64,000 nucleotides of DNA from an uncultured Candidatus Berkelbacteria bacterium (lineage in GTDB: Bacteria > Patescibacteriota > UBA1384 > UBA12157): contig CAIRFN010000013.1 in assembly GCA_903877885.1 (NCBI GenBank), positions 2,754 through 66,753 of the forward strand, read 5' to 3'. This document shows positions 2,846 through 58,323 of this stretch, piece by piece. A program made the position numbers and the translations under genes. The number at the start of each line of letters is the position of its first letter. Within the stretch, counting starts at the first letter, position 1. Below the pieces are notes generated by a model. It saw only the letters and a program-made list of their open reading frames with translations. It was not told where the DNA came from and ran no database searches.

Positions 2846-2914
2846 TTTTTGTGTGCCCGGTGACCCGAATGGCAATTCGAGTCTAGGCTGGCTAGGGCGG
2901 GCGTAACACAAAAA
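2846..2914. repeat. MITE-like repeat copy (TGTCATYC family internal core) bounded by inverted repeat tttttgtgtgcccg / cgggcgtaacacaaaaa
   Basis: Internal ccgaatggcaattcga matches the 58231-58323 copy (ccgaatggtaattcga in reverse complement); flanking 14-nt inverted repeat. Confidence 0.4.
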
Positions 2915-3759: not shown

Positions 3760-4557
3760 TTATTCCCTTCCGACTGATTCTTGGCAGATTTTAATAAATT
3801 CCTTACTTTTCAAACTGGCGGCGCCGACTAAAACACCGTCGATTTCTGGTTGATAAATAAATTCGCGAATATTATCTTCATCGACTGACCCGCCATACAA
3901 AATTTTAACTCGTTCGGACATAAAACGATTATATTTATCAGCCAAGGTATTTCTTAGTTTTTCCACCATATAATTAGCATAAGCGCCATCGGCCGCTTCA
4001 CCGCCATGATTAGTGCTAATGGCCCAAACTGGTTCGTAAACAACAATCACTTTTTCGGCATCGTTTTCAGACACACCTTGTAGAACGCCGCGTAAAAGCT
4101 GACTGATATTCGAGTTAGCGTCAATTTTAGTTGGTCGGCCTTTTCCCCGCTCAATCGCCTGTTTTTTTAGTTCACCGATACAAATAACCGGAATCAAATT
4201 ATTGGCTAAGGCAGCCACAATTTTATCATTGATTAATTCCACAGATTCACCAAAGTTTTTACGGCGCTCGGAATGACCTAAAATCACGTATTTAGCCATA
4301 CCTTTAAGCATCAGTGGCGAAATTTCGCCAGTCATCGCCCCTTTAGGTGTAAACCACATATTTTGGGCGCCTAAATCAATGTTATCTGGCGATTTTTCCA
4401 AAACTTCGGCCATCGGGTAAAGCCAAACAAACGGCGGACACAAAACCACATCCACTGCCAAATTGGCTACTGCGTTTTTAATCGAGGTCGTTAAAATAAT
4501 CGCGTCTGTTAGCGAGGTGTTCATTTTCCAGTTAGCAATGACTAGAGGTCTACGCAT
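3760..4557 (-). CDS. tpiA: triosephosphate isomerase
   Basis: ANWKMN, GHSERR, YGGSV motifs. Confidence 0.93.
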   Translation of the reverse strand: MRRPLVIANWKMNTSLTDAIILTTSIKNAVANLAVDVVLCPPFVWLYPMAEVLEKSPDNIDLGAQNMWFTPKGAMTGEISPLMLKGMAKYVILGHSERRKNFGESVELINDKIVAALANNLIPVICIGELKKQAIERGKGRPTKIDANSNISQLLRGVLQGVSENDAEKVIVVYEPVWAISTNHGGEAADGAYANYMVEKLRNTLADKYNRFMSERVKILYGGSVDEDNIREFIYQPEIDGVLVGAASLKSKEFIKICQESVGRE

Positions 4558-11326: not shown

Positions 11327-11551
11327 ATGACAGAACCTTTTTCTTGTTTTTTATGTGGTAGCGAAAAATTAGCAAATGGCGATTGTGCCAGCGTTAATTG
11401 TAGTTCAAATAAAAATAAATTTTATATCGGTGTTAAATCAACTGGAGGAAAAGATATCTTCTCTCCACCACTTGAGCACAATCCTTATATCAACATATTA
11501 GGCCCATATAAAACCAAAGAAAAAGCGAAGAAGATGTTGGATAAGCTATGA
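11327..11551 (+). CDS. small zinc-ribbon protein (hypothetical)
   Basis: CFLCG...CASVNC Cys4 motif; GGAGG RBS 8 nt upstream of ATG at 11327; 3' end overlaps the convergent uvrB stop. Confidence 0.4.
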   Translation: MTEPFSCFLCGSEKLANGDCASVNCSSNKNKFYIGVKSTGGKDIFSPPLEHNPYINILGPYKTKEKAKKMLDKL

Positions 11552-13543
11552 GATTTTAATTTTCTTTAGTTGATTAATTTCATCTCTAATTATCGCCGCC
11601 TGTTCGAACTGCAAGTTCTGGGCGGCATTTTTCATTTCTTTTTCTTTAGCTTTAATGATTTTCGGTAGGTCTGATAGATCCTTCACTTCGTTCAGGATGA
11701 CAGAAAGGTCGGTTTGCGCTGCTTTTTCTGTCAGTTCATGATCGATAATTGATTCGATATTTTTTTGAATTGTTTGTGGCGTAATATTGTGATCTTTATT
11801 ATATTGAGTTTGAATTTTGCGACGACGTTCAGTTTCATCAATCGCCCTTTTCATCGACCCGGTAATGTTGTCAGCATACAAAATCACTTTGCCGGAAACA
11901 TTTCGGGCCGCCCGACCGATAGTTTGAATTAGAGAAACATCAGACCGCAAAAAACCTTCTTTGTCCGCATCTAAAATGGCAACCAGTGTAACTTCCGGTA
12001 AATCCAAACCTTCGCGAAGGAGGTTTACGCCAACCAAACAATCGAACTCACCACGACGTAAATTTTCCAAAATTCCGACACGGTCAAGTGTTTGAATATC
12101 GGAATGTAAATATTCGGCTTTAACATCGGCTTCTTTTAAGTATTCCGATAATTGTTCAGCCATTTTTTTAGTAATAGTGGTAACCAAAATTCGTTCATGA
12201 TTTTTGGCCCGAACTTTAATTTCTTCGATCAAATCTTGAATTTGATTTTCCGCTGGCCGAATTTCTAATTCCGGATCAATCAAACCAGTTGGACGAATAA
12301 TTTGTTCAACAATATTGTTTTTGGATTTTTCATGTTCGTATTTACCGGGCGTGGCCGAGGTGAAAATGACTTGCGGAATACGGGTCTCAAATTCGTCAAA
12401 TTTAAGCGGTCGATTATCAAAGGCACTCGGAAGTCTAAATCCGTTTTCGACTAATGATTCTTTGCGCGCTCGGTCGCCTGCATACATACCACCGATTTGC
12501 GGCACAGTCACATGCGATTCATCAATCACCATCAAAAAATCTGGCTTACCATTCGTATCAACTGGAAAATATTCCAAAAGCGTATACGGCGCTTCGCCAG
12601 GAGCACGGTCAGTCATGTAGCGCGAATAGTTTTCTATTCCCGAACAATAACCGATTTCTTTCATCATTTCTAAATCAAAACGAGTGCGGCGTCTTAAACG
12701 CTCGGCTTCCAAAATTTTTCCATCTTTGGCAAATTCGGCCAAACGAATTTCTAAATCCTTTTCAATATTTTTAAGCGCGTCTTGCATTTTTGGATCTTCA
12801 ACCACAAAATGCTTGGATGCAAAAATGGTTGTTTCTTCCGGTGTGCCAATTTTTTTCATCGAAACAGCTTCAAATACAGCAATATTTTCCAAAATATCAT
12901 TGGTAAATTCCAATCGAAAAATAATATCTTGATCGACCGGCATAATTTCTATGGTCTGACCATGAACGCGAAACTTGCCGCGTTCGAGAATTTCACTGCG
13001 TGTAAAATACAAATCAATCAGTTGTTTAATAATCTCATTGCGATTATATTTTTGACCACGCTTTAAAAAAAGATAATTTGCGCGATAAGTTTTTGGATCG
13101 CCTAACCCGTAAATGCAAGAAACAGAACAGACAATAATCACGTCTTGGCGGGTCAAAAGTGCTTGAGTGGCGGCGTGGCGAAGTCGCTCAATTTCCTTGT
13201 TGATGTCGGCTTCCTTTTCAATATAGGTGTCGCTGGCTGCCATGTAAGCTTCTGGTTGATAATAATCATAGTAACTGACGAAATATTCAACCGCATTGTT
13301 TGGGAAAAAGGTGCGAAACTCGGAGCAAAGTTGGGCGGCCAAAGTTTTGTTGTGAGCAATTACCAAAGTTGGTTTTTGGATTTTTTCAATCACATTGGCA
13401 ATAGTGAAAGTTTTTCCCGATCCGGTCACGCCCAAAAGAGTCTGAAATTTTTCTCCAGACTTAATACCTTTGATCAACTTCTCAATTGCTTGAGGTTGGT
13501 CGCCAGCGGGCGCATATTTTGAATTGATTTTAAATTCCATATA
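11546..13543 (-). CDS. uvrB: excinuclease ABC subunit B
   Basis: GVTGSGKT Walker A, helicase motifs, C-terminal UVR domain; start set at MEFKINSKY (13543) with AAAGGA RBS, not the upstream in-frame ATG. Confidence 0.92.
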   Translation of the reverse strand, partial: YMEFKINSKYAPAGDQPQAIEKLIKGIKSGEKFQTLLGVTGSGKTFTIANVIEKIQKPTLVIAHNKTLAAQLCSEFRTFFPNNAVEYFVSYYDYYQPEAYMAASDTYIEKEADINKEIERLRHAATQALLTRQDVIIVCSVSCIYGLGDPKTYRANYLFLKRGQKYNRNEIIKQLIDLYFTRSEILERGKFRVHGQTIEIMPVDQDIIFRLEFTNDILENIAVFEAVSMKKIGTPEETTIFASKHFVVEDPKMQDALKNIEKDLEIRLAEFAKDGKILEAERLRRRTRFDLEMMKEIGYCSGIENYSRYMTDRAPGEAPYTLLEYFPVDTNGKPDFLMVIDESHVTVPQIGGMYAGDRARKESLVENGFRLPSAFDNRPLKFDEFETRIPQVIFTSATPGKYEHEKSKNNIVEQIIRPTGLIDPELEIRPAENQIQDLIEEIKVRAKNHERILVTTITKKMAEQLSEYLKEADVKAEYLHSDIQTLDRVGILENLRRGEFDCLVGVNLLREGLDLPEVTLVAILDADKEGFLRSDVSLIQTIGRAARNVSGKVILYADNITGSMKRAIDETERRRKIQTQYNKDHNITPQTIQKNIESIIDHELTEKAAQTDLSVILNEVKDLSDLPKIIKAKEKEMKNAAQNLQFEQAAIIRDEINQLKKIKIS
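11672..11702. repeat. MITE-family segment embedded in frame in uvrB (encodes SVILNEVKDLSD)
   Basis: tgatagatccttcacttcgttcaggatgacag shares 27 of 33 nt with the iscS-embedded copy at 51215-51243 and ends in the family TIR gatgaca. Confidence 0.55.
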
Positions 13544-13553
13544 TCCTTTGTTA

Positions 13554-13584
13554 TTCCGGTCAGGTTGGCAACCTAGAACCGGAA
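13554..13584. promoter_or_regulatory. nested palindrome upstream of uvrB (ttccggtc-AGGTTGgcCAACCT-ag-aaccggaa), candidate operator
   Basis: 7-bp outer and 6-bp inner perfect inverted repeats located 11-40 nt upstream of the uvrB start. Confidence 0.35.
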
Positions 13585-13631
13585 TCCAGTTCCCTGTTAT
13601 TCTATCACAAATCCCCAAATTTATCCACATG

Positions 13632-13700
13632 TTGACATCAAGAGAGAGAGAGTAAATTTAAGGTGGAAGGGATCACCTTTCTAAAATTAAATAAGAGGAG
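13632..13700 (+). promoter_or_regulatory. promoter/leader of paralog A: TTGACA, (AG)6 repeat, TAAATT, conserved leader hairpin AAGGTGgaagggatCACCTT, AGAGGAGG RBS
   Basis: About 85% identical to 29609-29688 except for (AG)n repeat number. Confidence 0.5.
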
Positions 13701-13707
13701 GCAAACC

Positions 13708-14472
13708 ATGTCAGACGAAACTTTACAACCGGAAGATGTAGAAAATTTTGTAGCACAAACTAATAATGCGCAAGCAATAGAAACAACAGAGAAAGTTAGA
13801 ACTAGAGAATCAGAGATTCAAACCAATATTGATTTCTGGAAAAACTTGGCATTAGAAGGTATAGAAGTTAATGAAAATGAAATTCGAGCCGCTATTGAAG
13901 TCCTACCAGAAGTCGAAGGGTTTGACTGGTATATCGCCATTCCTGAAGGTGTCAAAACGTCCGAGGTTTGGCAAAAAGTAATCACGCGTTATCCCAACGA
14001 TCCGTCTTTAAATGAATTAAATGGTCTAAAATTGCCACGCGAAACCAAAGAAACCTTTGCTGTGGCTGCCAGGTACAGCAAAAAACCAGACGCTGTCCGC
14101 GAAGAAGGACTAGTCAAATCAGCCAAGGATTGGGAGCGATCAATGTCGGTCTATGAGTCTCCAAATTGGGAAATAGCTGAACACACCTACATGTCTCCCT
14201 TGGAAAGAGTAGTGGCAGAACTGCGCTGGAACGCTGAAAACGGCACTCATTTAGATGAAGGAGATGAGATCACTTTTTGTCCCGGGTCCCGGACAACTGA
14301 CGGTCGTGTCCTTGGCATGCACTTTAACACCTTATATAACAATTGCACCTTCAATAGTTATGATCCTTCCACTAAAAAATGGAATTTAAGAGTCCGCCAG
14401 GTCGTAACTAAAGACACTAAAGTTGAATCAAATACTAATTTCTTTGAACAACGGCCATATCCTACAAAATAG
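13708..14472 (+). CDS. hypothetical protein, paralog A of duplicated family (start MSDETLQPE)
   Basis: N-terminal ~60 aa nearly identical to the 29689 ORF; conserved motifs FDW.IAIP.G, AARYS, C.GSRT.DG, TKDTK; no known domain recognised. Confidence 0.6.
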   Translation: MSDETLQPEDVENFVAQTNNAQAIETTEKVRTRESEIQTNIDFWKNLALEGIEVNENEIRAAIEVLPEVEGFDWYIAIPEGVKTSEVWQKVITRYPNDPSLNELNGLKLPRETKETFAVAARYSKKPDAVREEGLVKSAKDWERSMSVYESPNWEIAEHTYMSPLERVVAELRWNAENGTHLDEGDEITFCPGSRTTDGRVLGMHFNTLYNNCTFNSYDPSTKKWNLRVRQVVTKDTKVESNTNFFEQRPYPTK

Positions 14473-14580: not shown

Positions 14581-14657
14581 TTGAAATGATTTTATAGATT
14601 GCCACGCTTCCCGCCCGCCGGCGGATCGCTCGCAATGACAAAAAAATTATTTTTCTA

Positions 14658-14742
14658 ACCTGTCACAGCCCACTTCGGAAGTGGGCTATATGGTTAAAGT
14701 TTAGTCCGTTACCACCTGGGAGGTGGCAACATATGGTTAGAG
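14658..14742. repeat. REP doublet (agcccacttcggaagtgggct-atatggtta ; ccacctgggaggtgg-caacatatggtta)
   Basis: Two GC-rich hairpins each followed by ATATGGTTA; whole ~85-nt unit repeated at 30566-30651. Confidence 0.65.
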
Positions 14743-14744
14743 AA

Positions 14745-14779
14745 AAAATCTAATCAAAAAGGCTACCCAAGGGCAGCCC
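14745..14779 (-). terminator. terminator of small acidic-protein gene
   Basis: gggctgcccttgggtagcc hairpin followed by T-run on minus strand. Confidence 0.5.
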
Positions 14780-27267: not shown

Positions 27268-28669
27268 ACTCTTGGGCGATTTTTAAAATTTTACTATCTG
27301 ACAATTGTGGACCAATAAGATGTAAACCGACTGGTAGACCATCGATATTTCCGGCTGGCACGCTCATCGCTGGCAGTCCAGCCAGGTTAACGGAAATTGT
27401 ATAAATATCTGATAGATACATTTTGAGCGGATCATCGGATTTTTCGCCGATTTTGAAAGCCGTGGTTGGCATAACCGGGCCTAAAATCAAATCGACTTTA
27501 GAAAAAGCCTCTTCAAAATCTTGTTTAACCAAGGCTCGCACCTTTTGGGCTTGATTATAATATTGGTCAATATAGCCAGCGCTCGAGGTATAGGTACCTA
27601 AAATAATGCGGCGTTTGACTTCCGCGCCCAATCCTTCGGAGCGGGAATTAATATATTTTTCCAACAAATTATCGCCTTCGGCTGAAAAACCGTACTTAAT
27701 GCCATCGTAACGCCCCATATTAGAAGCAACTTCCACCGGAACGATAATATAGTAACAGCTCAAAGCATATTTGGCATTTGGTAGTTCAATGTCGATAATT
27801 TCGGCGCCCATGGCTTTGAATTTACCAATCGCCGCTTCAATTACTTTTTTGACTTCAGAATCTAGTCCTTCGGCAAAATATTCGCGCGGGATGCCAATCT
27901 TAAGATTTCTAGATTCCAGATCCTGCGCCCCGCCGGTCTGGAATGACAACGAAGTCGAGTCTTTTTCATCATAACCTTTGATAAGATCAAACAAAATTTC
28001 GGCATCTTCGGCGGTTTTAGTCATTGGCCCAATCTGATCAAGCGATGATGCCATGGCCATTAATCCGTAACGACTGACTGCGCCATAGGTTGGCTTAAAG
28101 CCAGTTATACCACAAAAACTAGCAGGCTGACGAATTGAACCACCGGTATCGGAACCAAGCGCCGCGATACACATGTTGGCGGCGACGGCGGCAGCCGAGC
28201 CGCCTGATGATCCACCAGGAACGCGATCTAAATCATGAGGATTGCGGGTAACGCCATAGGCCGAGTTTTCGGTTGAAGAACCCATAGCAAATTCGTCAAG
28301 ATTGGTTTTGCCGATAATGACCGCGCCAGCAGATTTAAGTTTCGATATTACAGTCGCATCATATGGCGCCACAAAATTTTCCAAAATTTTGCTACCAGCC
28401 GTTGTTTTCGTATCCAGCATACACATATTGTCTTTGATAGCGACTGGAATACCATCGATTTGGGATAACGGTTGATTATTTCGATATCGTTCGTCTGATT
28501 CCTTAGCCGATTTTATCGCTTCATCTTTTAGTACCAATAAAAAAGCATGGATATCTTTATCTTTATGCTCGATTTCATCTAAACAGGCTTGTGTTAACTC
28601 TTGCGATGTGATTTCGCCTGATTTCAACTTTTCGCTTGCTTCTTTGATTGTTAGTTCATTTAGTTTCAT
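27242..28669 (-). CDS. gatA: Asp/Glu-tRNA amidotransferase subunit A (amidase)
   Basis: Amidase signature GGSSGGSAAAVAA; conserved catalytic-Lys region. Confidence 0.93.
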   Translation of the reverse strand: MKLNELTIKEASEKLKSGEITSQELTQACLDEIEHKDKDIHAFLLVLKDEAIKSAKESDERYRNNQPLSQIDGIPVAIKDNMCMLDTKTTAGSKILENFVAPYDATVISKLKSAGAVIIGKTNLDEFAMGSSTENSAYGVTRNPHDLDRVPGGSSGGSAAAVAANMCIAALGSDTGGSIRQPASFCGITGFKPTYGAVSRYGLMAMASSLDQIGPMTKTAEDAEILFDLIKGYDEKDSTSLSFQTGGAQDLESRNLKIGIPREYFAEGLDSEVKKVIEAAIGKFKAMGAEIIDIELPNAKYALSCYYIIVPVEVASNMGRYDGIKYGFSAEGDNLLEKYINSRSEGLGAEVKRRIILGTYTSSAGYIDQYYNQAQKVRALVKQDFEEAFSKVDLILGPVMPTTAFKIGEKSDDPLKMYLSDIYTISVNLAGLPAMSVPAGNIDGLPVGLHLIGPQLSDSKILKIAQEFENNVLSS

Positions 28670-29608: not shown

Positions 29609-29688
29609 TTGATTTCGAGAGAGAGAGAGAGAGAGTAAATTTAAAGTGGAAGGGATCACCTTTCTAAAATTAAATAAGGAGGCAAATC
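29609..29688 (+). promoter_or_regulatory. promoter/leader of paralog B: TTGATT, (AG)9 repeat, TAAATT, conserved leader hairpin, AAGGAGG RBS
   Basis: Homologous to 13632-13700 but with 3 more AG units; an extra TTGACA lies at 29598. Confidence 0.5.
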
Positions 29689-30501
29689 ATGTCAGATGAA
29701 ACTTTACAACCAGAAGCTGCTGAAGATTTTGTGGCAACGATTAATAATGTGCAAGATGTAGAAACAACAGAGAAAGTTAGAACCAAGGAATCAGAAATTC
29801 AAGCCAATATTGATTTTTGGAAAATTAATGGTAAAAAATATTTTGGTATTGAGATTGATGAACAGGAAATAAGAAATGCAATTGAATCATTGCCAGAAAA
29901 AGAAGGTTTTGATTGGTTAATTGCTATACCTAAAGGGTTAAAATTATCTGATGTATCTATGAATAAATGGTCGCACGATTATACTATTTACGATCCAATC
30001 AATGACGCAAATCCAGAAAAAAGGCAAGCCCACAGGGATTTAATTGATGCTATTCAAATGCCACGCAATGCACAGGAAACTTATGCCATCGCCGCTCGTT
30101 ATAGTGCCGAACCAGATGATGGAAGCTATGAACATGATTATATGGGCAAAAATCATAAAAGCAGTTTAGAATGGGAACAGACAGGTAAAGCATTTATGTC
30201 TCCTATGGAATGGATAATTGCTGATATGCGCTTTAATGTCAATACTGATATGCGTTTTGATCTTAAGACCGATAACCACCTAGATACTGCTCACAGACTT
30301 CCTCTTGTTGTTCACAATAGTACACTTTGTGCTGGTTCAAGAACACCTGATGGCAAAGTACCTTATGTGAGTTGGAGCCAGTTAGGTGCCGGAGGACTTA
30401 GCTTTAATACTCTAAAACCAGAAAATAAGATTTTTTCAGATATTGGTGTTCGCGAAGTAATAACTAAAGATACTAAAACTGAAGCAGAACAAACTGAATA
30501 A
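29689..30501 (+). CDS. hypothetical protein, paralog B of duplicated family
   Basis: N-terminus and several internal motifs shared with the 13708-14472 ORF. Confidence 0.6.
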   Translation: MSDETLQPEAAEDFVATINNVQDVETTEKVRTKESEIQANIDFWKINGKKYFGIEIDEQEIRNAIESLPEKEGFDWLIAIPKGLKLSDVSMNKWSHDYTIYDPINDANPEKRQAHRDLIDAIQMPRNAQETYAIAARYSAEPDDGSYEHDYMGKNHKSSLEWEQTGKAFMSPMEWIIADMRFNVNTDMRFDLKTDNHLDTAHRLPLVVHNSTLCAGSRTPDGKVPYVSWSQLGAGGLSFNTLKPENKIFSDIGVREVITKDTKTEAEQTE

Positions 30502-30565: not shown

Positions 30566-30651
30566 AACCTGTCACGGCCCACTTCCAGGGTGGGATATAT
30601 GGTTAAAATTTACCAAGTTACCACCTTGGAGGTGGTAACATATGGTTAGAA
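30566..30651. repeat. REP doublet (cccacttccagggtggg-atatatggtta ; gttaccaccttggaggtggtaac-atatggtta)
   Basis: Homologous to 14658-14742; the second hairpin is identical to the one inside mnmA. Confidence 0.65.
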
Positions 30652-30701
30652 AACAAGCTAAACCCGCCTGCCGGTAGACAGGACTTGATCTACGGAAAAT
30701 T

Positions 30702-33506: not shown

Positions 33507-33598
33507 TGGATCCCAGATCAAGGATTCCATCCTGTCTGGGATGACATTAATAATACCCCTTAATGTCATTTTACCTTTTAAGGTATTGACATTCAAGC
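33507..33598 (-). promoter_or_regulatory. ligA promoter (TTGAAT-17-TAAAAT) with two hairpins / a 10-bp perfect inverted repeat just downstream of -10
   Basis: On minus strand: -35 ttgaat, 17-nt spacer, -10 taaaat; then atgacattaa-N9-ttaatgtcat and atcccag-N17-ctgggat palindromes before the start codon. Confidence 0.4.
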
Positions 33599-39350: not shown

Positions 39351-40541
39351 CTATTTAATAATTCCTCCACCCAGAACCTCTTCTTTGTAATAGAAGACGA
39401 CTGATTGACCAGGCGTAATTGCTCGTTGCGGTTTCTTAAATATTACTCTAACTTCTTCATCATTAATATGTGTAATCTGACAAGGTTCGATTGGATGACC
39501 ATGACGGATTCTGGCACTTATATTATTTGTTTTTGGTTTATTAATCCAGTTTAAATTTGTGGCCACCAGTTCTTTTTGGAATAAATCTTCATCTTGACCG
39601 ACAATTAATTCATTGGTTTTACTCTTCAATTTTATCACATAATAAGCGTTCGGACCACCCAAACCCAAACCTTCGCGCTGACCGATTGTGTAATTTATTA
39701 AACCGTCATGCGTGCCGATTTGGGTTTTGGTTTTGATGTCAATAATCGGACCAGGCTCGGTTAGATTTTGAGCGTAGCGGCGTAAAAAGCCGCCAACATT
39801 TCTGTCCGGAATAAAACAAATGCCTTGGGACTCACGGCGCGTCGCGGTCGGAAGTTGCATCTCGAGAGCCAGTTGGCGAATTTGCGGTTTAGTATAATCG
39901 CCACAAGGAAATAAAACGTGGGCTAATTTTTCTTGTGTTAGCGTCCACAAAAAATAAGTTTGATCTTTAACTTTGTCTTTCGGTTGCAAAAAATGATATC
40001 CGGTTTTGTCTTTTTTGATTCTGGCGTAGTGACCAGTCGCTAAATATTCGGCATCTAACTCAAAGGCTTTTTGCATCAAAAGTTCGCCTTTAATATCACG
40101 ATTACAAATCACGCACGGATTTGGCGTGCGACCCGATTCATATTCTTCAATATAATAATCCACCACTAATTTTTTAAATTCTTTTTCAAAATTAACAACA
40201 TAAAAAGGAATGCCCAGCTTTTTGGCCACCGCGCGAGCGGCAGTCGAGGCGTCCACCGAGCAACAGATATTTTCGCGCAAACCAGATGTTACCACCTTGG
40301 AGGTGGTAACTTGAGGTTCAGCCCAAAGCTTCACGGAGTCTGAATCTTTGTCGCCGGAATCGCTCCAAAGCTTCATAAAAATTCCCACGACGTCAAAGCC
40401 CTGTTTTTTTAGTAGCGCGGCGGCAACCGATGAGTCCACTCCGCCAGACATTGCGCACACTACTCGTGGTTTCTTTCTGTCATTGCGAGCCGCCGCAGCG
40501 GCGTGGCAATCTTTCTTTAAATTGTCATTTTCTTTTTTCAT
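39351..40541 (-). CDS. mnmA: tRNA-specific 2-thiouridylase MnmA, carrying in-frame repeat insertions
   Basis: SGGVDSS PP-loop, catalytic Cys residues, C-terminal barrel; extra ~25 aa after FMKLW and a GC-rich N-terminal extension. Confidence 0.9.
   Translation of the reverse strand: MKKENDNLKKDCHAAAAARNDRKKPRVVCAMSGGVDSSVAAALLKKQGFDVVGIFMKLWSDSGDKDSDSVKLWAEPQVTTSKVVTSGLRENICCSVDASTAARAVAKKLGIPFYVVNFEKEFKKLVVDYYIEEYESGRTPNPCVICNRDIKGELLMQKAFELDAEYLATGHYARIKKDKTGYHFLQPKDKVKDQTYFLWTLTQEKLAHVLFPCGDYTKPQIRQLALEMQLPTATRRESQGICFIPDRNVGGFLRRYAQNLTEPGPIIDIKTKTQIGTHDGLINYTIGQREGLGLGGPNAYYVIKLKSKTNELIVGQDEDLFQKELVATNLNWINKPKTNNISARIRHGHPIEPCQITHINDEEVRVIFKKPQRAITPGQSVVFYYKEEVLGGGIIK
40283..40375. repeat. 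REP hairpin (gttaccaccttggaggtggtaac + ttgaggttcagcc) inside the mnmA reading frame, with 11-nt direct repeats ccaaagcttca
   Basis: 23-nt hairpin identical to 30617-30639; encodes AEPQVTTSKVVTSG, absent from E. coli MnmA. Confidence 0.7.
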
Positions 40542-40620: not shown

Positions 40621-40693
40621 AATAGTATTTAAATTAATTCTACTACCTAAAAAACCGCCTGGACTAACCAAAGCGGTTTTTTGATATTTTCTT

Positions 40694-40765
40694 TGTCATT
40701 CCGGACTTGATCCGAAATCTAGTTTATTTAGCCCGCCCCGTGATGAACGAAGTGAATTTTACGGG
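40694..40765. repeat. MITE-family copy (tgtcattccgga ... gatgaacgaagtgaa ... acgggg)
   Basis: Carries the TGTCATTC TIR and the gaacgaagtgaa core shared with the uvrB/iscS-embedded copies; overlaps the stop of the 40759 gene. Confidence 0.5.
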
Positions 40766-41367
40766 GTGAATCGGAAACTAGCAAGAATCGCTTTTTGAGT
40801 CTCGGATAAATTAGCTTTATTTTCAGCTGATGCGTCGAAATTAAAGAAGTTGCCACTGTTTTTTACAATAACCTCGTACTGAGTTTTAATTCCCGTAGCC
40901 ATATCTTCGTAGGCCGGCAGATTAGCAAACGTTATTTTCTTCGGCTCAAAAATATTGCCAGTTTCAGCTAACTTCGTAACCAAACCATCTAAATCTAAAC
41001 TCGAAAGCTGAATTTTTTTACCCGTCGCACTATAAGTAAATTCATGATTAATATAAATTGTTAGATCACTAGCACTATCCTGATTATTAATCATAATTTG
41101 ACCCGAGCTATCATTAATATCAACGATATAATTTTTTGGATATTTAAAACTAAATCCCAAATCCTTATTTTCATACGTTTTCCAGTCAGCGGTGGAAATA
41201 ACTGATGATGTTGGAACAGGCGGTTTTGGTGTAACGATTGGTTTAGTCATTAACCAATATCGCCAGCCGAAAAAGAAAGCGACGATGACGATGACGCCGA
41301 TTAAAATTCCGAGTAACCATTTTGTTGATGTGTGCATTTCTCTCCTTTGATTTGTTATAATTATCAT
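40759..41367 (-). CDS. membrane-anchored exported protein, paralog family B (copy 2)
   Basis: Same architecture as 35410-36024; ends FRFTP. Confidence 0.5.
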   Translation of the reverse strand: MIIITNQRREMHTSTKWLLGILIGVIVIVAFFFGWRYWLMTKPIVTPKPPVPTSSVISTADWKTYENKDLGFSFKYPKNYIVDINDSSGQIMINNQDSASDLTIYINHEFTYSATGKKIQLSSLDLDGLVTKLAETGNIFEPKKITFANLPAYEDMATGIKTQYEVIVKNSGNFFNFDASAENKANLSETQKAILASFRFTP

Positions 41368-41423
41368 CTCATCATTTTAAACAAAAAGAAATATCACACG
41401 CTAGCGCCACAAAGAAATTTTCT

Positions 41424-42182
41424 AACCATATAGCGTACACCCTGGAAGTGTACATTGAGGTTTAGCCGGAGTAATTATCAATCAAAATATTTTTGATTAG
41501 CGCCAAATCGCGTTGATATGATTTTTGGTCAAGAACAAACTTCTTGTATCTTTTTGGCGACATATCAATGATTTCTTTAAATAAGCAAATCGGATTATTC
41601 ACTTCCTCGCAAAATTCTTTTAGAGAAGAAAAAGGCCAATCAAACGGATTATCAACCAAACCAGCTGAACTCGGATTTAGGTGCACATAGCGTGTTGAGT
41701 GTAATAATTGATTATCATTTTCAATTAAAACATTCCTGAAATGTCCTTCCCATAATGGACCGTTTCGATGATGTTTTAAGTTAAAATATCTAGTATAACT
41801 ATTTAAAATTTTACCGATATATTTTGAAATTCCATCATCTTTTTTCTGCTTTAAAATAAGATGAAAATGCGTCGGCATAATACAATAAGCCACAATTTCG
41901 ACCAAAACATCGTTATTCTTTTTTAGGCTATTTAAAATAGCCGTTTGAGCCATCATCTCCAGTTCTTTAAACCTTGAGTACTTATGATTAAATTCCGCAA
42001 AACGGTACATATCCAAGAGTTCTAAAATCCTATAATAATCATCGTCATCATTAAAAATCTGATATTTAGCGATACTCCGACTAAAGATATGATAATATTG
42101 GTCGGTTGCTAAAGGCGTTTTTCTAATATTCATAAGTCGATTATACCACAATGTACACCCCGGGGGTGTACATTGGTTTAAC
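41424..42182 (-). mobile_element. REPtron-like unit 3: RAYT gene flanked by inverted REPs (aaccatatagc-gtacaccctggaagtgtac-attgaggttt / aatgtacaccccgggggtgtacatt-ggtttaac)
   Basis: GTACAC/GTGTAC stems in inverted orientation on both sides of the ORF. Confidence 0.65.
41462..42133 (-). CDS. REP-associated tyrosine transposase (IS200-like Y1), copy 3
   Basis: HFHLIL HUH motif, STRYVHLNP Tyr motif; start set at MNIRKTPLA (42133) because the upstream ORF extension is encoded by the REP hairpin. Confidence 0.8.
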   Translation of the reverse strand: MNIRKTPLATDQYYHIFSRSIAKYQIFNDDDDYYRILELLDMYRFAEFNHKYSRFKELEMMAQTAILNSLKKNNDVLVEIVAYCIMPTHFHLILKQKKDDGISKYIGKILNSYTRYFNLKHHRNGPLWEGHFRNVLIENDNQLLHSTRYVHLNPSSAGLVDNPFDWPFSSLKEFCEEVNNPICLFKEIIDMSPKRYKKFVLDQKSYQRDLALIKNILIDNYSG

Positions 42183-42200
42183 AATCATTAAATCTCCAAC

Positions 42201-43917: not shown

Positions 43918-43985
43918 AATTAATTAATGCAGAATGCAGAATTGAATAATTTTTTTTAATTCTGAATTATGAATTCTGAATTATC
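43918..43985. repeat. AT-rich repeat block: aattaattaatgcagaatgcagaattgaataa (inverted copy at 58130-58161) plus tandem aattctgaattatg x2
   Basis: ~30 of 32 nt reverse-complement identity with 58130-58161; 14-nt tandem repeat. Confidence 0.5.
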
Positions 43986-48779: not shown

Positions 48780-48809
48780 GAGTCATAGTTCCTTATTTAA
48801 AATTAATAT

Positions 48810-48906
48810 TGTCATTCCAGACTGGCTGGCAGCAAGATCTGGAATCTGTCTAATCTAAATAATCTGGATTCCCGATGTCGGATTGCCATCTGGCTCGAGA
48901 ATGACA
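48810..48906. repeat. complete MITE-like element with TIRs tgtcattccagac / gctcgagaatgaca
   Basis: 97-bp intergenic element; internal ggaatctgtctaatctaaataatctggattcc palindrome; TIR shared with copies at 2846, 40694, 51189, 58231. Confidence 0.55.
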
Positions 48907-48931
48907 AATAAATATGATAGACCTTGCCAGA

Positions 48932-49888: not shown

Positions 49889-50272
49889 TCACTTTTTGTT
49901 TTGGAAATCTGCGATTGCTTTTTGGAGTGCTTCCTCGGCCAAAACTGAACAATGACGTTTGACTGGCGGTAAACCGTTTAAAGCTTCAACCACTGCATTA
50001 TTGGTCACTTTTAGAGCTTCTTCAATAGTTTTACCAATCACTAAATCGGTTAAAATCGAGGAAGTGGCGATGGCGGCCGTGCAACCAAAAGTCTGAAATT
50101 TGGCATCAGTAATAATATTATTTTCAACTTTGATTTGCAGTTCCATTAAATCGCCACAAACCGGATTGCCGACCCGACCGACGCCGGACGGATTATCTAA
50201 CTCTCCCATATTGTGCGGGTTTTTAAAATGTTCCATCACTTTATCCGAATAAAGATTTGAGATATTGCTCAT
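49889..50272 (-). CDS. iscU: Fe-S cluster assembly scaffold (IscU/NifU-like)
   Basis: GNPVCGD, FGC, conserved Cys triad. Confidence 0.88.
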   Translation of the reverse strand: MSNISNLYSDKVMEHFKNPHNMGELDNPSGVGRVGNPVCGDLMELQIKVENNIITDAKFQTFGCTAAIATSSILTDLVIGKTIEEALKVTNNAVVEALNGLPPVKRHCSVLAEEALQKAIADFQNKK

Positions 50273-51495
50273 TTGTATTCCTTTGGACTTAAGGGACTTA
50301 TTTTTCTTAATTTGGCGATAATTTCTTTTAAATTTTCGATTGTATAATCGATTTCTTCTTTGGTTGAATTTTGACCCAAGGTAAAACGAATTGAACCGTG
50401 AGCCCGTTCGGCATCACTGTAAACCGCCATTATGACGTGCGATGGTTGAAGCGACAACGATGTGCAAGCCGATCCCGAGGAGGCAGCAATCCCGACTAAA
50501 TCTAAATTCATTAAAATTGATTCGCCTTCGACATATTTAAAATAAACATTGACATTATTTGGGCTACGAAATTCCTTACCACCATTTAATTCTGTTTCTG
50601 GAATTTCTTTTAGAATTCGGCCGATGAAATAGTCTCTGATATTCTTTATCTCATTTCTTATTTCTAATTTCTCGTTTCTTAATTCTTCGACGGCTTTTCC
50701 AATTGCCACAATTGACGCCACATTTTCTGTGCCAGCGCGACGGCCGAACTCTTGCTCGCCACCATGCATCATTGGCATAATATTCACGCCTTTTTTGACA
50801 AACAAAACGCCAACGCCTTTGGGCGCGCCGATTTTATGACCGGAAATAGTCAATAAATCAACATGTAAATAATCGACATCCATATTTTGATATTCAGCCG
50901 CCTGAACCGCGTCGGTGTGAAATAATATTTTGAGTTCGCGAGCGTCATTTTCTTTTTCGATCATTTTTCCAATGGCACGGATCGGATTAACTGAACCAAT
51001 TTCATTATTAACATACATAATAGAAACTAAAACAGTATTTTCTTTAATCGCCGCTTTAACCGCATCAACTTCGATTATGCCGTCTGTATTTGGTTTTAAG
51101 TAAGTTACTTCCACACCGCTTTTTTCCAATGTTTTACAGGAATTCAAAATCGCATGATGTTCTATTTGGGAAGTAATGACATGGAATTTGTCATCCTGAG
51201 GCTTAGCCGAAGGATCTAGATTCTTCACTTCGTTCAGAATGACGCTATTAACCATTCCTTTAATCGCCAAATTATCAGATTCGGTGCCGCCAGAAGTAAA
51301 AATAATTTCCGCCGGATCGGCATTTAAAAACTTAGCGATCTTAATTCTTGATTCATCAACCGCAATCCGAGCGGCACGGCCCCATTCGTGCATACTCGAA
51401 GGATTACCGTAATCCGTTGTCAGATATGGCATCATTTCAGTTAAAACTTCGGCTTTTATTGGCCCAGTCGCCGCATAATCAAGATAAACCTTCAT
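50269..51495 (-). CDS. iscS: cysteine desulfurase (IscS/NifS), carrying an in-frame repeat insertion
   Basis: PLP-lysine region ISGHKIGAPKG, SSGSACTS active Cys; extra ~14 aa (SVILNEVKNLDPSAKPQDD) after DNLAIKG. Confidence 0.9.
   Translation of the reverse strand: MKVYLDYAATGPIKAEVLTEMMPYLTTDYGNPSSMHEWGRAARIAVDESRIKIAKFLNADPAEIIFTSGGTESDNLAIKGMVNSVILNEVKNLDPSAKPQDDKFHVITSQIEHHAILNSCKTLEKSGVEVTYLKPNTDGIIEVDAVKAAIKENTVLVSIMYVNNEIGSVNPIRAIGKMIEKENDARELKILFHTDAVQAAEYQNMDVDYLHVDLLTISGHKIGAPKGVGVLFVKKGVNIMPMMHGGEQEFGRRAGTENVASIVAIGKAVEELRNEKLEIRNEIKNIRDYFIGRILKEIPETELNGGKEFRSPNNVNVYFKYVEGESILMNLDLVGIAASSGSACTSLSLQPSHVIMAVYSDAERAHGSIRFTLGQNSTKEEIDYTIENLKEIIAKLRKISPLSPKEYK
51189..51243. repeat. MITE-family element embedded in frame in iscS (TIRs tgtcatcctgag / ttcagaatgaca)
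   Basis: Short (~55 nt, count approximate) element with inverted ends; shares tcttcacttcgttcagRatgac with the uvrB copy. Confidence 0.6.
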
Positions 51496-58088: not shown

Positions 58089-58129
58089 ATGGCTCCTTAA
58101 TTTAATAATTCAGAATTTTTTAAATTATT

Positions 58130-58161
58130 TTATTTAATTCTGCATTCTGCATTAATTAATT
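58130..58161. repeat. AT-rich repeat ttatttaattctgcattctgcattaattaatt (inverted copy of 43918-43949)
   Basis: Reverse-complement near-identity over ~32 nt. Confidence 0.5.
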
Positions 58162-58221: not shown

Positions 58222-58230
58222 GTCCCTCTT

Positions 58231-58323
58231 TGTCATTCCCGACCGGATGGCGTCCGGATCGAGAATCTAGATCCCCGATATCGAATTACCATTCGGTTCG
58301 CCTTTAGGTAAATTGGATGACAT
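58231..58323. repeat. MITE-like element with TIRs tgtcattc / ggatgaca
   Basis: Internal gaatctagatcc and ccgaatggtaattcga shared with other copies; right TIR abuts the stop of the 58326 gene. Confidence 0.5.

Follow-up and report, generated by a model that had tools for sequence, protein, structure and literature searches.

A small hairpin repeat, probably selfish, is read in frame in essential genes of a Berkelbacteria genome and may be linked to a GIY-YIG nuclease

How does the same short piece of DNA come to be translated, in the same frame, within two unrelated housekeeping genes? The question is raised by uvrB and iscS in a 64,000-nucleotide (nt) stretch of contig CAIRFN010000013.1 from an uncultured Candidatus Berkelbacteria bacterium, which was analysed as a whole and is referred to here as the window. 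Its DNA has a G+C content of 38.6%, and its proteins find their closest counterparts in Patescibacteria, Berkelbacteria being the nearest named relatives. We put at roughly 0.7 the probability that the segment shared by uvrB and iscS is one copy of a selfish DNA repeat, small and structured. The repeat sits in frame in at least three, and probably four, essential genes (uvrB, iscS and gatA, with mnmA as the probable fourth).

Comparison of the window with itself by blastn-short aligned 11675-11701 with 51217-51243 at 25 of 27 nt (E 1.6e-5), and a repeat search of the window recovered the same match as repeat family D17. A 26-nt degenerate pattern matches the window only at these two sites, with none expected from shuffles. 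Both segments lie on the minus strand and are read in one frame, giving SVILNEVKDL in UvrB and SVILNEVKNL in the cysteine desulfurase, as a sequence-only reading of this DNA had proposed. The terminal motif that heads the repeat, TGTCATYCYNRR, occurs eight times in the window against an expectation of 0.3 (maximum of 2 in 100 shuffles). Since the elements are identical across five independent assemblies of one strain, they are not assembly artefacts. Native look-alikes do occur: a candidate coding copy at 4235-4277 (minus strand) was rejected, being the native VILGHSERR motif of TpiA (triosephosphate isomerase), encoded by GGTCATTCCGAGCGCCGT, which mimics the head of the repeat by chance and calls for caution in pattern-based censuses. 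That two native coding segments came to resemble each other by chance or convergence is nevertheless refuted for uvrB and iscS, given the near-identity of their DNA, a palindromic partner beside the iscS copy, closest orthologues that lack the segment, and the recurrence of the same 25-mer in at least 120 unrelated genome stretches.

The open reading frame (ORF) at 50269..51495 encodes a class-V aminotransferase cysteine desulfurase according to Pfam, its best PDB matches are cysteine desulfurases, and it adjoins a NifU_N gene. Within it, the segment of about 55 nt with inverted ends noticed from the sequence turned out to be an inverted doublet, made of a unit at 51219-51243 (minus strand), the spacer TA and a unit at 51189-51216 (plus strand), and reading GTCATTCTGAACGAAGTGAAGAATC, then TA, then GATCCTTCGGCTAAGCCTCAGGATGACA. 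The loop that follows DNLAIKG has 24 amino acids (aa) in the query, compared with a median of 13 aa (range 6-56) among 119 homologues; the closest non-carriers have the short 13-aa loop and are 77-79% identical outside it (72-73% by BLASTP), and a solved homologue, PDB 9wep, has a 14-residue gap facing the insert. Judged by these alignments the segment is an insert relative to the orthologues, which bears out the proposal that it adds residues to IscS. Only one of the six frames of the doublet is open, the one in use, and the other five contain stop codons. In an AlphaFold2 model the fold is kept (mean pLDDT 91.7, pTM 0.90), with the first half of the insert extending helix 70-91 and the second half forming a low-confidence loop (pLDDT 56 for residues 91-100). 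Two further homologues, P0021 (66% identity) and P0119 (57%), carry like doublets at the identical codon, four residues past KG, and the doublet of P0119 is almost the same DNA sequence as that of the query, TA spacer included, in a host gene far apart from it.

The ORF at 11546..13630 (minus strand) is UvrB, with the Pfam domains ResIII, UvrB_inter, Helicase_C, UvrB and UVR, and the linker that holds the unit runs from the UvrB domain (PF12344, residues 584-625) to the UVR motif (residues 657-690). The segment is absent from 117 of 120 UvrB homologues, which read ELKPE-VTxEFIEIENLEDLP at this place. In the three carriers, which are the query, P0126 and P0135, the sequence is (T/A)A(Q/K)TDLSVIL(N/S)E(V/A/M)K(D/N)L and the protein is longer by a net 5 aa, and P0126 and P0135 carry the unit at the DNA level too; the nearest relative of P0126, P0127 (88% identity), is without it. 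Between the query and P0126 the unit differs at exactly four bases, those of the two covarying pairs; three of these differences alter the encoded amino acid. Either the hairpin has been maintained inside the gene, or different master copies have entered or converted the site. The case for a hairpin in uvrB rests on covariation because the predicted nearest-neighbour energy of its 25-nt unit is weak (-1.6 kcal/mol, z 0). The likely true start of uvrB is the ATG at 13540 (MEFKINSKY), as homologues have about 652 aa and the ORF 694.

Whereas coding copies had been recognised from the sequence in uvrB and iscS only, those in gatA and mnmA had been overlooked. The gatA unit aligns over 39 nt at 87% identity (E 1e-5) with 48809-48847, the left arm of an intergenic doublet, and its hairpin has a predicted energy of -10.5 kcal/mol (z -4.5); the net gain is 2 aa. 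Two GatA orthologues, P0248 and P0263, contain complete in-frame doublets of about 90 nt, of the type of the intergenic copies at 48809 and 58230, and the query gatA retains only the first half of such a doublet. P0278 has two copies, and P0281 has a unit of the uvrB/iscS type read in another frame, as SHPEQSEGS. In mnmA no in-frame ATG lies between the unit and the conserved AMSGGVDSS motif, so that translation probably takes in the unit and lengthens the N-terminus; failing that, the unit would belong to the 5' untranslated region. Altogether the window holds about 14 units at about 11 sites, 3-4 of them coding (Table 1).

Table 1. Copies and candidate relics of the hairpin repeat in the window, in order of position
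Feature	Coordinates	Strand	Context
Doubtful relic	2846..2914		No TGTCAT termini; only a 16-nt core, CCGAATGGCAATTCGA, in common with 58281-58296 (15/16 nt, E 0.2-0.3)
Single hairpin unit, TGTCATCCTGAACGAAGTGAAGGATCT	11676..11702	-	In frame in uvrB as SVILNEVKDL; linker between UvrB domain and UVR motif
Degenerate long-loop unit, TGTTATTCCGGTC...ACCGGAATCC	13549..13587	+	Directly upstream of the likely true uvrB start
Unit with ATTGC/GCAAT stem, TTGTCATTGCGAGCG...GTGGCAATC	14597..14641	-	Intergenic
Single long-loop unit, TTGTCATTCCAGACCGGCGGGGCGCAGGATCTGGAATC	27912..27949	-	In frame in gatA as LSFQTGGAQDLES; exposed by motif scan
Single unit, TGTCATCCCAGAC...GATCTGGGATC	33509..33546	-	Intergenic
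Unit, TGTCATTGCGAGCCGCCGCAGCGGCGTGGCAATC	40478..40511	+	5' end of mnmA ORF 39351..40541 (-); read as DCHAAAAARNDR
Composite: unit TTGTCATTCCGGACTTGATCCGAAATC, then second hairpin with GAACGAAGTGAA core	40693..40790	+	Intergenic
Inverted doublet	48809..48907	left unit 48809-48846 (+), right unit 48866-48907 (-)	Intergenic; same type as the GatA inserts of P0248 and P0263
Inverted doublet	51189..51243	-	In frame in iscS/nifS-type cysteine desulfurase; encodes VILNEVKNLDPSAKPQDD within the 24-aa loop
Inverted doublet, GAATCTAGATCC at centre	58230..58322	left unit 58230-58267 (+), right unit 58270-58322 (-)	Intergenic

Of four intergenic copies put forward by the sequence-only reading, those beginning at 40693, 48809 and 58230 are real and the one at 2846 is doubtful; the units at 13549, 14597 and 33509 had gone unnoticed in it. 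The far edge of the composite at 40693 overlaps a gene end: the ORF at 40759..41367 (minus strand) has its final residues (SFRFTP) and its stop codon inside it, at 40759-40790, and the composite may supply the C-terminus and stop of that ORF.

The repeat is built from a unit of about 25-45 nt, consisting of the head TGTC, a hairpin and a final C. In this hairpin, which has nine positions in the 25-nt form, A-T-Y-C-T and A-G-R-A-T make an outer stem of 5 bp; tandem G.A mismatches and an inner stem of 2 bp follow, closed by either a GNA triloop or a longer inner hairpin, and every unit in the window folds as a hairpin that starts directly after TGTC. Two inverted units around a variable spacer form a doublet with the ends TGTCAT...ATGACA; at the genome loci described below most units are paired in this way, with spacers of about 10-60 nt. 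A scan for GTCATYCTGARCGNAGYGAAGRATC in one genome per bacterial or archaeal species matched at least 120 stretches, and those listed include Nitrospirota, Chloroflexota, Acidobacteriota, Bacteroidota, Clostridia, Planctomycetota, Omnitrophota, Gemmatimonadota, Verrucomicrobiota, Proteobacteria, Saccharibacteria and Gracilibacteria, among others, with two cultured isolates (Mucilaginibacter sp. L196 and Hymenobacter glaciei JCM 17225). The same 25-nt unit is common in IMG/VR viral contigs (at least 120 loci, L214-L333), and phages may help to carry units between phyla. Shortened copies of the head also occur: a truncated head, GTCATCCTGAGC, often lies 8-10 nt upstream of a complete unit as a short direct repeat of the left stem (L007, L018, L037, L039, L041, L043, L054, L072, L082, L083, L101, L111 and L120).

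Paired positions vary together. Among 151 units from the 120 genome loci listed, the pair 6/22 is CG in 81, TA in 66 and something else in 4, and the pair 11/17 is GC in 115, AT in 29 and something else in 7, with the middle base of the triloop free; the ACGAAGT of the uvrB and iscS units is a compensated variant. The hairpin of this family is under constraint. GCGAAGC is a classic, very stable DNA mini-hairpin, which may serve as a lead. Such strong covariation, with compensatory differences even inside uvrB, together with intergenic copies between co-directional genes and a unit conserved across phyla, is what one might see if the hairpin served the host, as a terminator, RNA-stability element or protein-binding site kept by selection, with coding copies recruited to regulate translation or to provide useful loops. 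We consider this improbable, because the copies are patchy among close relatives at each site examined, spacers and positions are not conserved, units lie in either orientation relative to neighbouring genes, and covariation is equally expected if a nuclease or mobility mechanism requires the hairpin. Nor do the units match an Rfam family, whether in the window (at gathering thresholds) or at four loci with GIY-YIG genes (at E-value thresholds).

The patchiness is seen in all three proteins. For every carrier of IscS, GatA and UvrB, the closest sequences outside the loop are non-carriers, and other lineages carry the element at the DNA level in the same loops. This pattern would fit repeated gain, with common descent and loss, spread by recombination, and target specificity also to be considered. 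In-frame copies are found in further proteins. L061, a Bacteroidales metagenome-assembled genome, encodes a sigma-54 response regulator with unit peptides in both inter-domain linkers (the ORF containing 2764-2788 of that locus): PPERSEES in the one that joins the receiver domain to AAA+, and VILSEAKNL...LRMTG in the one from the AAA lid to the helix-turn-helix. A Parcubacteria NlpC/P60-like ORF carries a doublet. Six long ORFs that overlap units in genomes of high GC content were discounted as likely spurious, two for want of a Pfam domain and four on their low-complexity translation alone. Units are confirmed inside recognisable proteins in 2 of 151 cases in the broad sample against 3-4 of about 14 in the window, a small sample; the excess of coding copies in the window is consistent with a compact genome that offers little non-coding landing space.

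The IscS and GatA loops are general sinks for added sequence. Unrelated low-complexity inserts occupy the IscS loop (51180-51260) in P0006, P0013, P0016, P0030, P0032, P0068, P0075, P0081, P0085, P0093, P0100, P0106 and P0111, and the GatA loop (27900-27960) in P0246, P0258, P0261, P0290, P0312 and P0333. Examples are SKFLISKQIPNSKSQNQ, NFQFSIFNKFSNDK, SEIRNPKQIQNS, AQGRPASGW and QNRLSISPARKSQPTRSASALDHA, and they look like in-frame copies of further repeat families.

What could move such a unit? A seed ORF that starts 6 nt past a unit in a Saccharibacteria contig was searched for in the 120 genome loci, which yielded four small ORFs, all abutting units. All four encode GIY-YIG proteins (PF01541, Pfam E 5e-17 to 1.5e-8) of about 90 aa that consist of the catalytic domain alone, and in L002, L012 and L027 the gene lies between a forward and a reverse unit. 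Clustering of all ORFs within 400 nt of units at these loci, without regard to function, gave GIY-YIG as the sole family that is always adjacent to units. For a reciprocal test, a profile of three unit-associated proteins was run against metagenome contigs, and the best 80 of 589 relatives were taken. Units lie within 250 nt of the gene at 78 of these 80 loci, and unit heads concentrate less than 300 nt from the gene, with nearly none beyond. The nearest units are arranged forward-reverse at 33 loci, reverse-forward at 12, reverse-reverse at 10 and forward-forward at 8. The gene is intact at 76 of the 80 and its product is 54-73% identical to the query protein. A few unit-flanked genes contain an internal stop or frameshift (4 of the 80 metagenomic ones, L145, L150, L158 and L199, as well as L012); broken copies are expected of a decaying selfish gene, an alternative genetic code being another possibility. 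A loop-anchored recount of 134 units around GIY-YIG genes found T-A, C-G and G-C all at pair 6-22. T precedes GTC in 126 of the 134 and, by eye, A commonly follows GAC in the units listed; the flanking T and A may be part of the element or a split TA target. The profile of the unit-associated proteins matches the UPF0213 structures 1ZG2 (E 1.3e-9) and 1YWL (E 8e-6), and the GIY-YIG protein matched nothing in NCBIfam above cut-off, nothing in PADLOC and, searched as a single sequence, nothing in the PDB.

These observations bear on two other accounts of how the units spread. The short hairpin with a conserved 5' head, the frequent inverted doublets and the many dispersed copies recall repetitive extragenic palindromic (REP) sequences and their doublets (REPINs), so that the units might be moved by a distant REP-associated tyrosine transposase (RAYT, of the HUH Y1 type), with the GIY-YIG link secondary. 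This is quite unlikely: the ORF clustering, which covered 8-kb stretches at the 120 genome loci, found no recurrent transposase near the units, neither DDE nor RAYT (a distant RAYT would lie outside these stretches), and REP families are known as species-specific and extragenic, whereas the present unit crosses phyla and is found in frame. Alternatively, the units could be the places that a free-standing GIY-YIG homing endonuclease gene recognises or lands in as it moves by cleavage and repair, with the units themselves spreading otherwise, through recombination, replication slippage or an unseen enzyme. The catalytic domain of such endonucleases (PF01541) is present in all four proteins. The units on either side of the gene occur in each of the four possible pairs of orientations, doublets without a gene are often arrayed in its flanks, most units have no GIY-YIG gene nearby, and the protein has a weak N-terminal likeness, below cut-off, to the group I intron endonuclease model TIGR01453. 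We nonetheless hold this account to be unlikely, though less so than a RAYT, since the protein of only about 90 aa has no separate DNA-binding domain, homology arms of 25 nt would be short for homing as generally understood, and the origin and cross-phylum spread of the units would be left unexplained.

We favour the reading in which the repeat is probably a non-autonomous hairpin element mobilised by a GIY-YIG nuclease, a role suggested by the position of the gene. Under this model the GIY-YIG gene flanked by units would be the autonomous form, and the gene-less doublets and singlets of the window would be passengers. The nuclease would recognise the hairpin or a cruciform and promote the copying of units and doublets. 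In a compact candidate-phyla-radiation genome new copies would often land in genes, where they would be lost unless they fell, oriented and framed so as to be free of stops, into surface loops that tolerate a change of length or into linkers between domains, and would then be translated as extra loop residues. The coding copies would be neutral passengers rather than functional additions. A wider proposal follows the same lines and is more tentative: that TGTC-hairpin units and the gene of about 90 aa of the UPF0213 type together form an undescribed class of mobile element, present across phyla and phages, in which a minimal structure-specific nuclease drives the spread and repeats remodel the surface loops of essential proteins, most visibly in candidate-phyla-radiation genomes. 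We regard this as possible, with the odds somewhat against it.

Several observations weigh against a mobile repeat driven by a GIY-YIG nuclease. (i) Movement at the sites. A search for polymorphism among contigs encoding exactly the protein beside the 48809-48907 doublet found no filled and empty pair among near-identical genomes, as the five same-strain assemblies (at least 99.9% identical) all carry the elements, and no target-site duplication is definable without an empty site from a close relative. The three IscS carriers hold the element at exactly one codon, which calls for a specific target, common ancestry or gene conversion. A flank outside the element (AAQ/KTDLS) is also common to the three UvrB carriers, which fits a single origin followed by recombination or repeated loss just as well as repeated insertion. 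The sequence-only reading had the element landing in coding sequence without breaking the frame; the in-frame copies in housekeeping genes are real, but in uvrB and gatA it takes the place of most of the native loop, with small net gains, and is no clean addition. (ii) Unity of the family. The long-loop units, in gatA and between genes, have their head, tail, centre and architecture in common with the 25-nt type, and no statistically strong alignment connects the two. (iii) The nuclease. A GIY-YIG gene stands beside units in only 4 of the 120 genome loci, in none of the 120 viral loci with units (1.06 Mb searched) and nowhere in the window. Only 41% of the GIY-YIG genes have the forward-gene-reverse arrangement, and the 80 loci were picked by similarity to unit-adjacent proteins, so that the association holds for that subfamily only. 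GIY-YIG enzymes are not known as transposases.

Comparison with known systems places the repeat between several of them. Rickettsia palindromic elements (RPEs) insert in frame in many unrelated genes at fold-compatible positions (Ogata et al. 2000, Science, and 2002, Genome Res, as summarised in PMC10969869). Like RPEs, the present repeats are short palindromes that occur both between genes and in frame in unrelated housekeeping genes, are translated at fold-compatible positions and have struck the same protein loops repeatedly; the placement in fold-compatible surface segments is seen in the IscS model, the UvrB linker and the variation in loop length. They differ in their hosts (Patescibacteria and many other phyla, as against Rickettsia), in size (singlets of 27 nt and doublets of 55-97 nt, as against roughly 100-150 bp, compared by description and not by sequence) and in their module, a 25-nt cross-phylum hairpin linked to a GIY-YIG gene, a link that PMC10969869 does not report for RPEs. 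With REP and REPIN sequences they share a hairpin with a conserved 5' head, inverted doublets and units that flank a putative enzyme gene; the enzyme beside the units is here a GIY-YIG nuclease of about 90 aa, in contrast to the HUH Y1 enzyme of RAYTs, and the repeats are not confined to extragenic DNA, with 3-4 in-frame copies in the window and others in L061 and L109, and they cross phyla.

[quoted passage not shown] The inverted termini are there, and the doublets, of 55-99 nt with TGTCATYC...GRATGACA ends, have the size and terminal repeats of a MITE. As in the bacterial MITEs ERIC, Correia/NEMIS and Nezha (PMC10969869), the elements are small, non-coding, able to fold into a long hairpin and occasionally in frame. 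The assignment falls short in that this is not a local MITE but a 25-nt unit found in many phyla and in viral contigs, that the basic module is a single hairpin, itself frequent (as in the uvrB and gatA singlets), so that the supposed complete elements are doublets, and that no DDE parent insertion sequence was found. A target-site duplication could not be defined. As to the protein, the profile match and PF01541 ally it with UPF0213/COG2827 (1ZG2, BH0048; 1YWL, EF2693), chains that their depositors name 'hypothetical UPF0213 protein'; in a literature search of incomplete coverage, no paper was found that links UPF0213 to repeats. On the units, their peptides or a GIY-YIG link the same search gave only the Rickettsia precedent, so that a prior description is possible.

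The window contains other repeats. Direct repeats at 13641-13843 and 29624-29824 (about 200 nt, 98%/85%) and at 14657-14747 and 30566-30656 (about 90 nt, 84%) bracket paralogous ORFs of about 270 aa (13663..14472 and 29689..30501), a gene cassette present in duplicate, its upstream and downstream regions conserved. Two further small families of hairpin repeats, GTACACCCnGGnGGTGTAC and GTTACCACCTnGGAGGTGGTAAC then ATATGGTT, have conserved flanks and lie at gene ends; their copies are at 41416-41457, 42134-42184, 51998-42 and 58933-83, and also at 14708-14738, 30617-30647 and 40288-40318. The two gene-end families look like terminators. A 42-nt inverted repeat (AATTAATTAATGCAGAATGCAGAATTGAATAA..., 88% complementary) joins distant intergenic sites at 43918-43959 and 58120-58161, one of its copies lying about 70 nt from the 58230 doublet.

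In-frame selfish palindromes have been regarded as a peculiarity of Rickettsia, and they are now also found in UvrB, IscS, GatA and probably MnmA of a bacterium of the candidate phyla radiation. Loop insertions in the proteins of small genomes can thus be derived from repeats and need not be adaptive. The units explain a large group of recurrent peptide motifs that contaminate predicted proteomes, such as VILSEAKNL, HSERSEES, RFAQND and ASLRMT, and annotation and alignment pipelines will take repeat DNA for protein sequence. The behaviour of in-frame palindromic repeats is known already; what could be new is a hairpin unit shared across phyla, with its GIY-YIG partner, which gives the UPF0213 proteins a function that can be tested and may amount to a new kind of mobile DNA.

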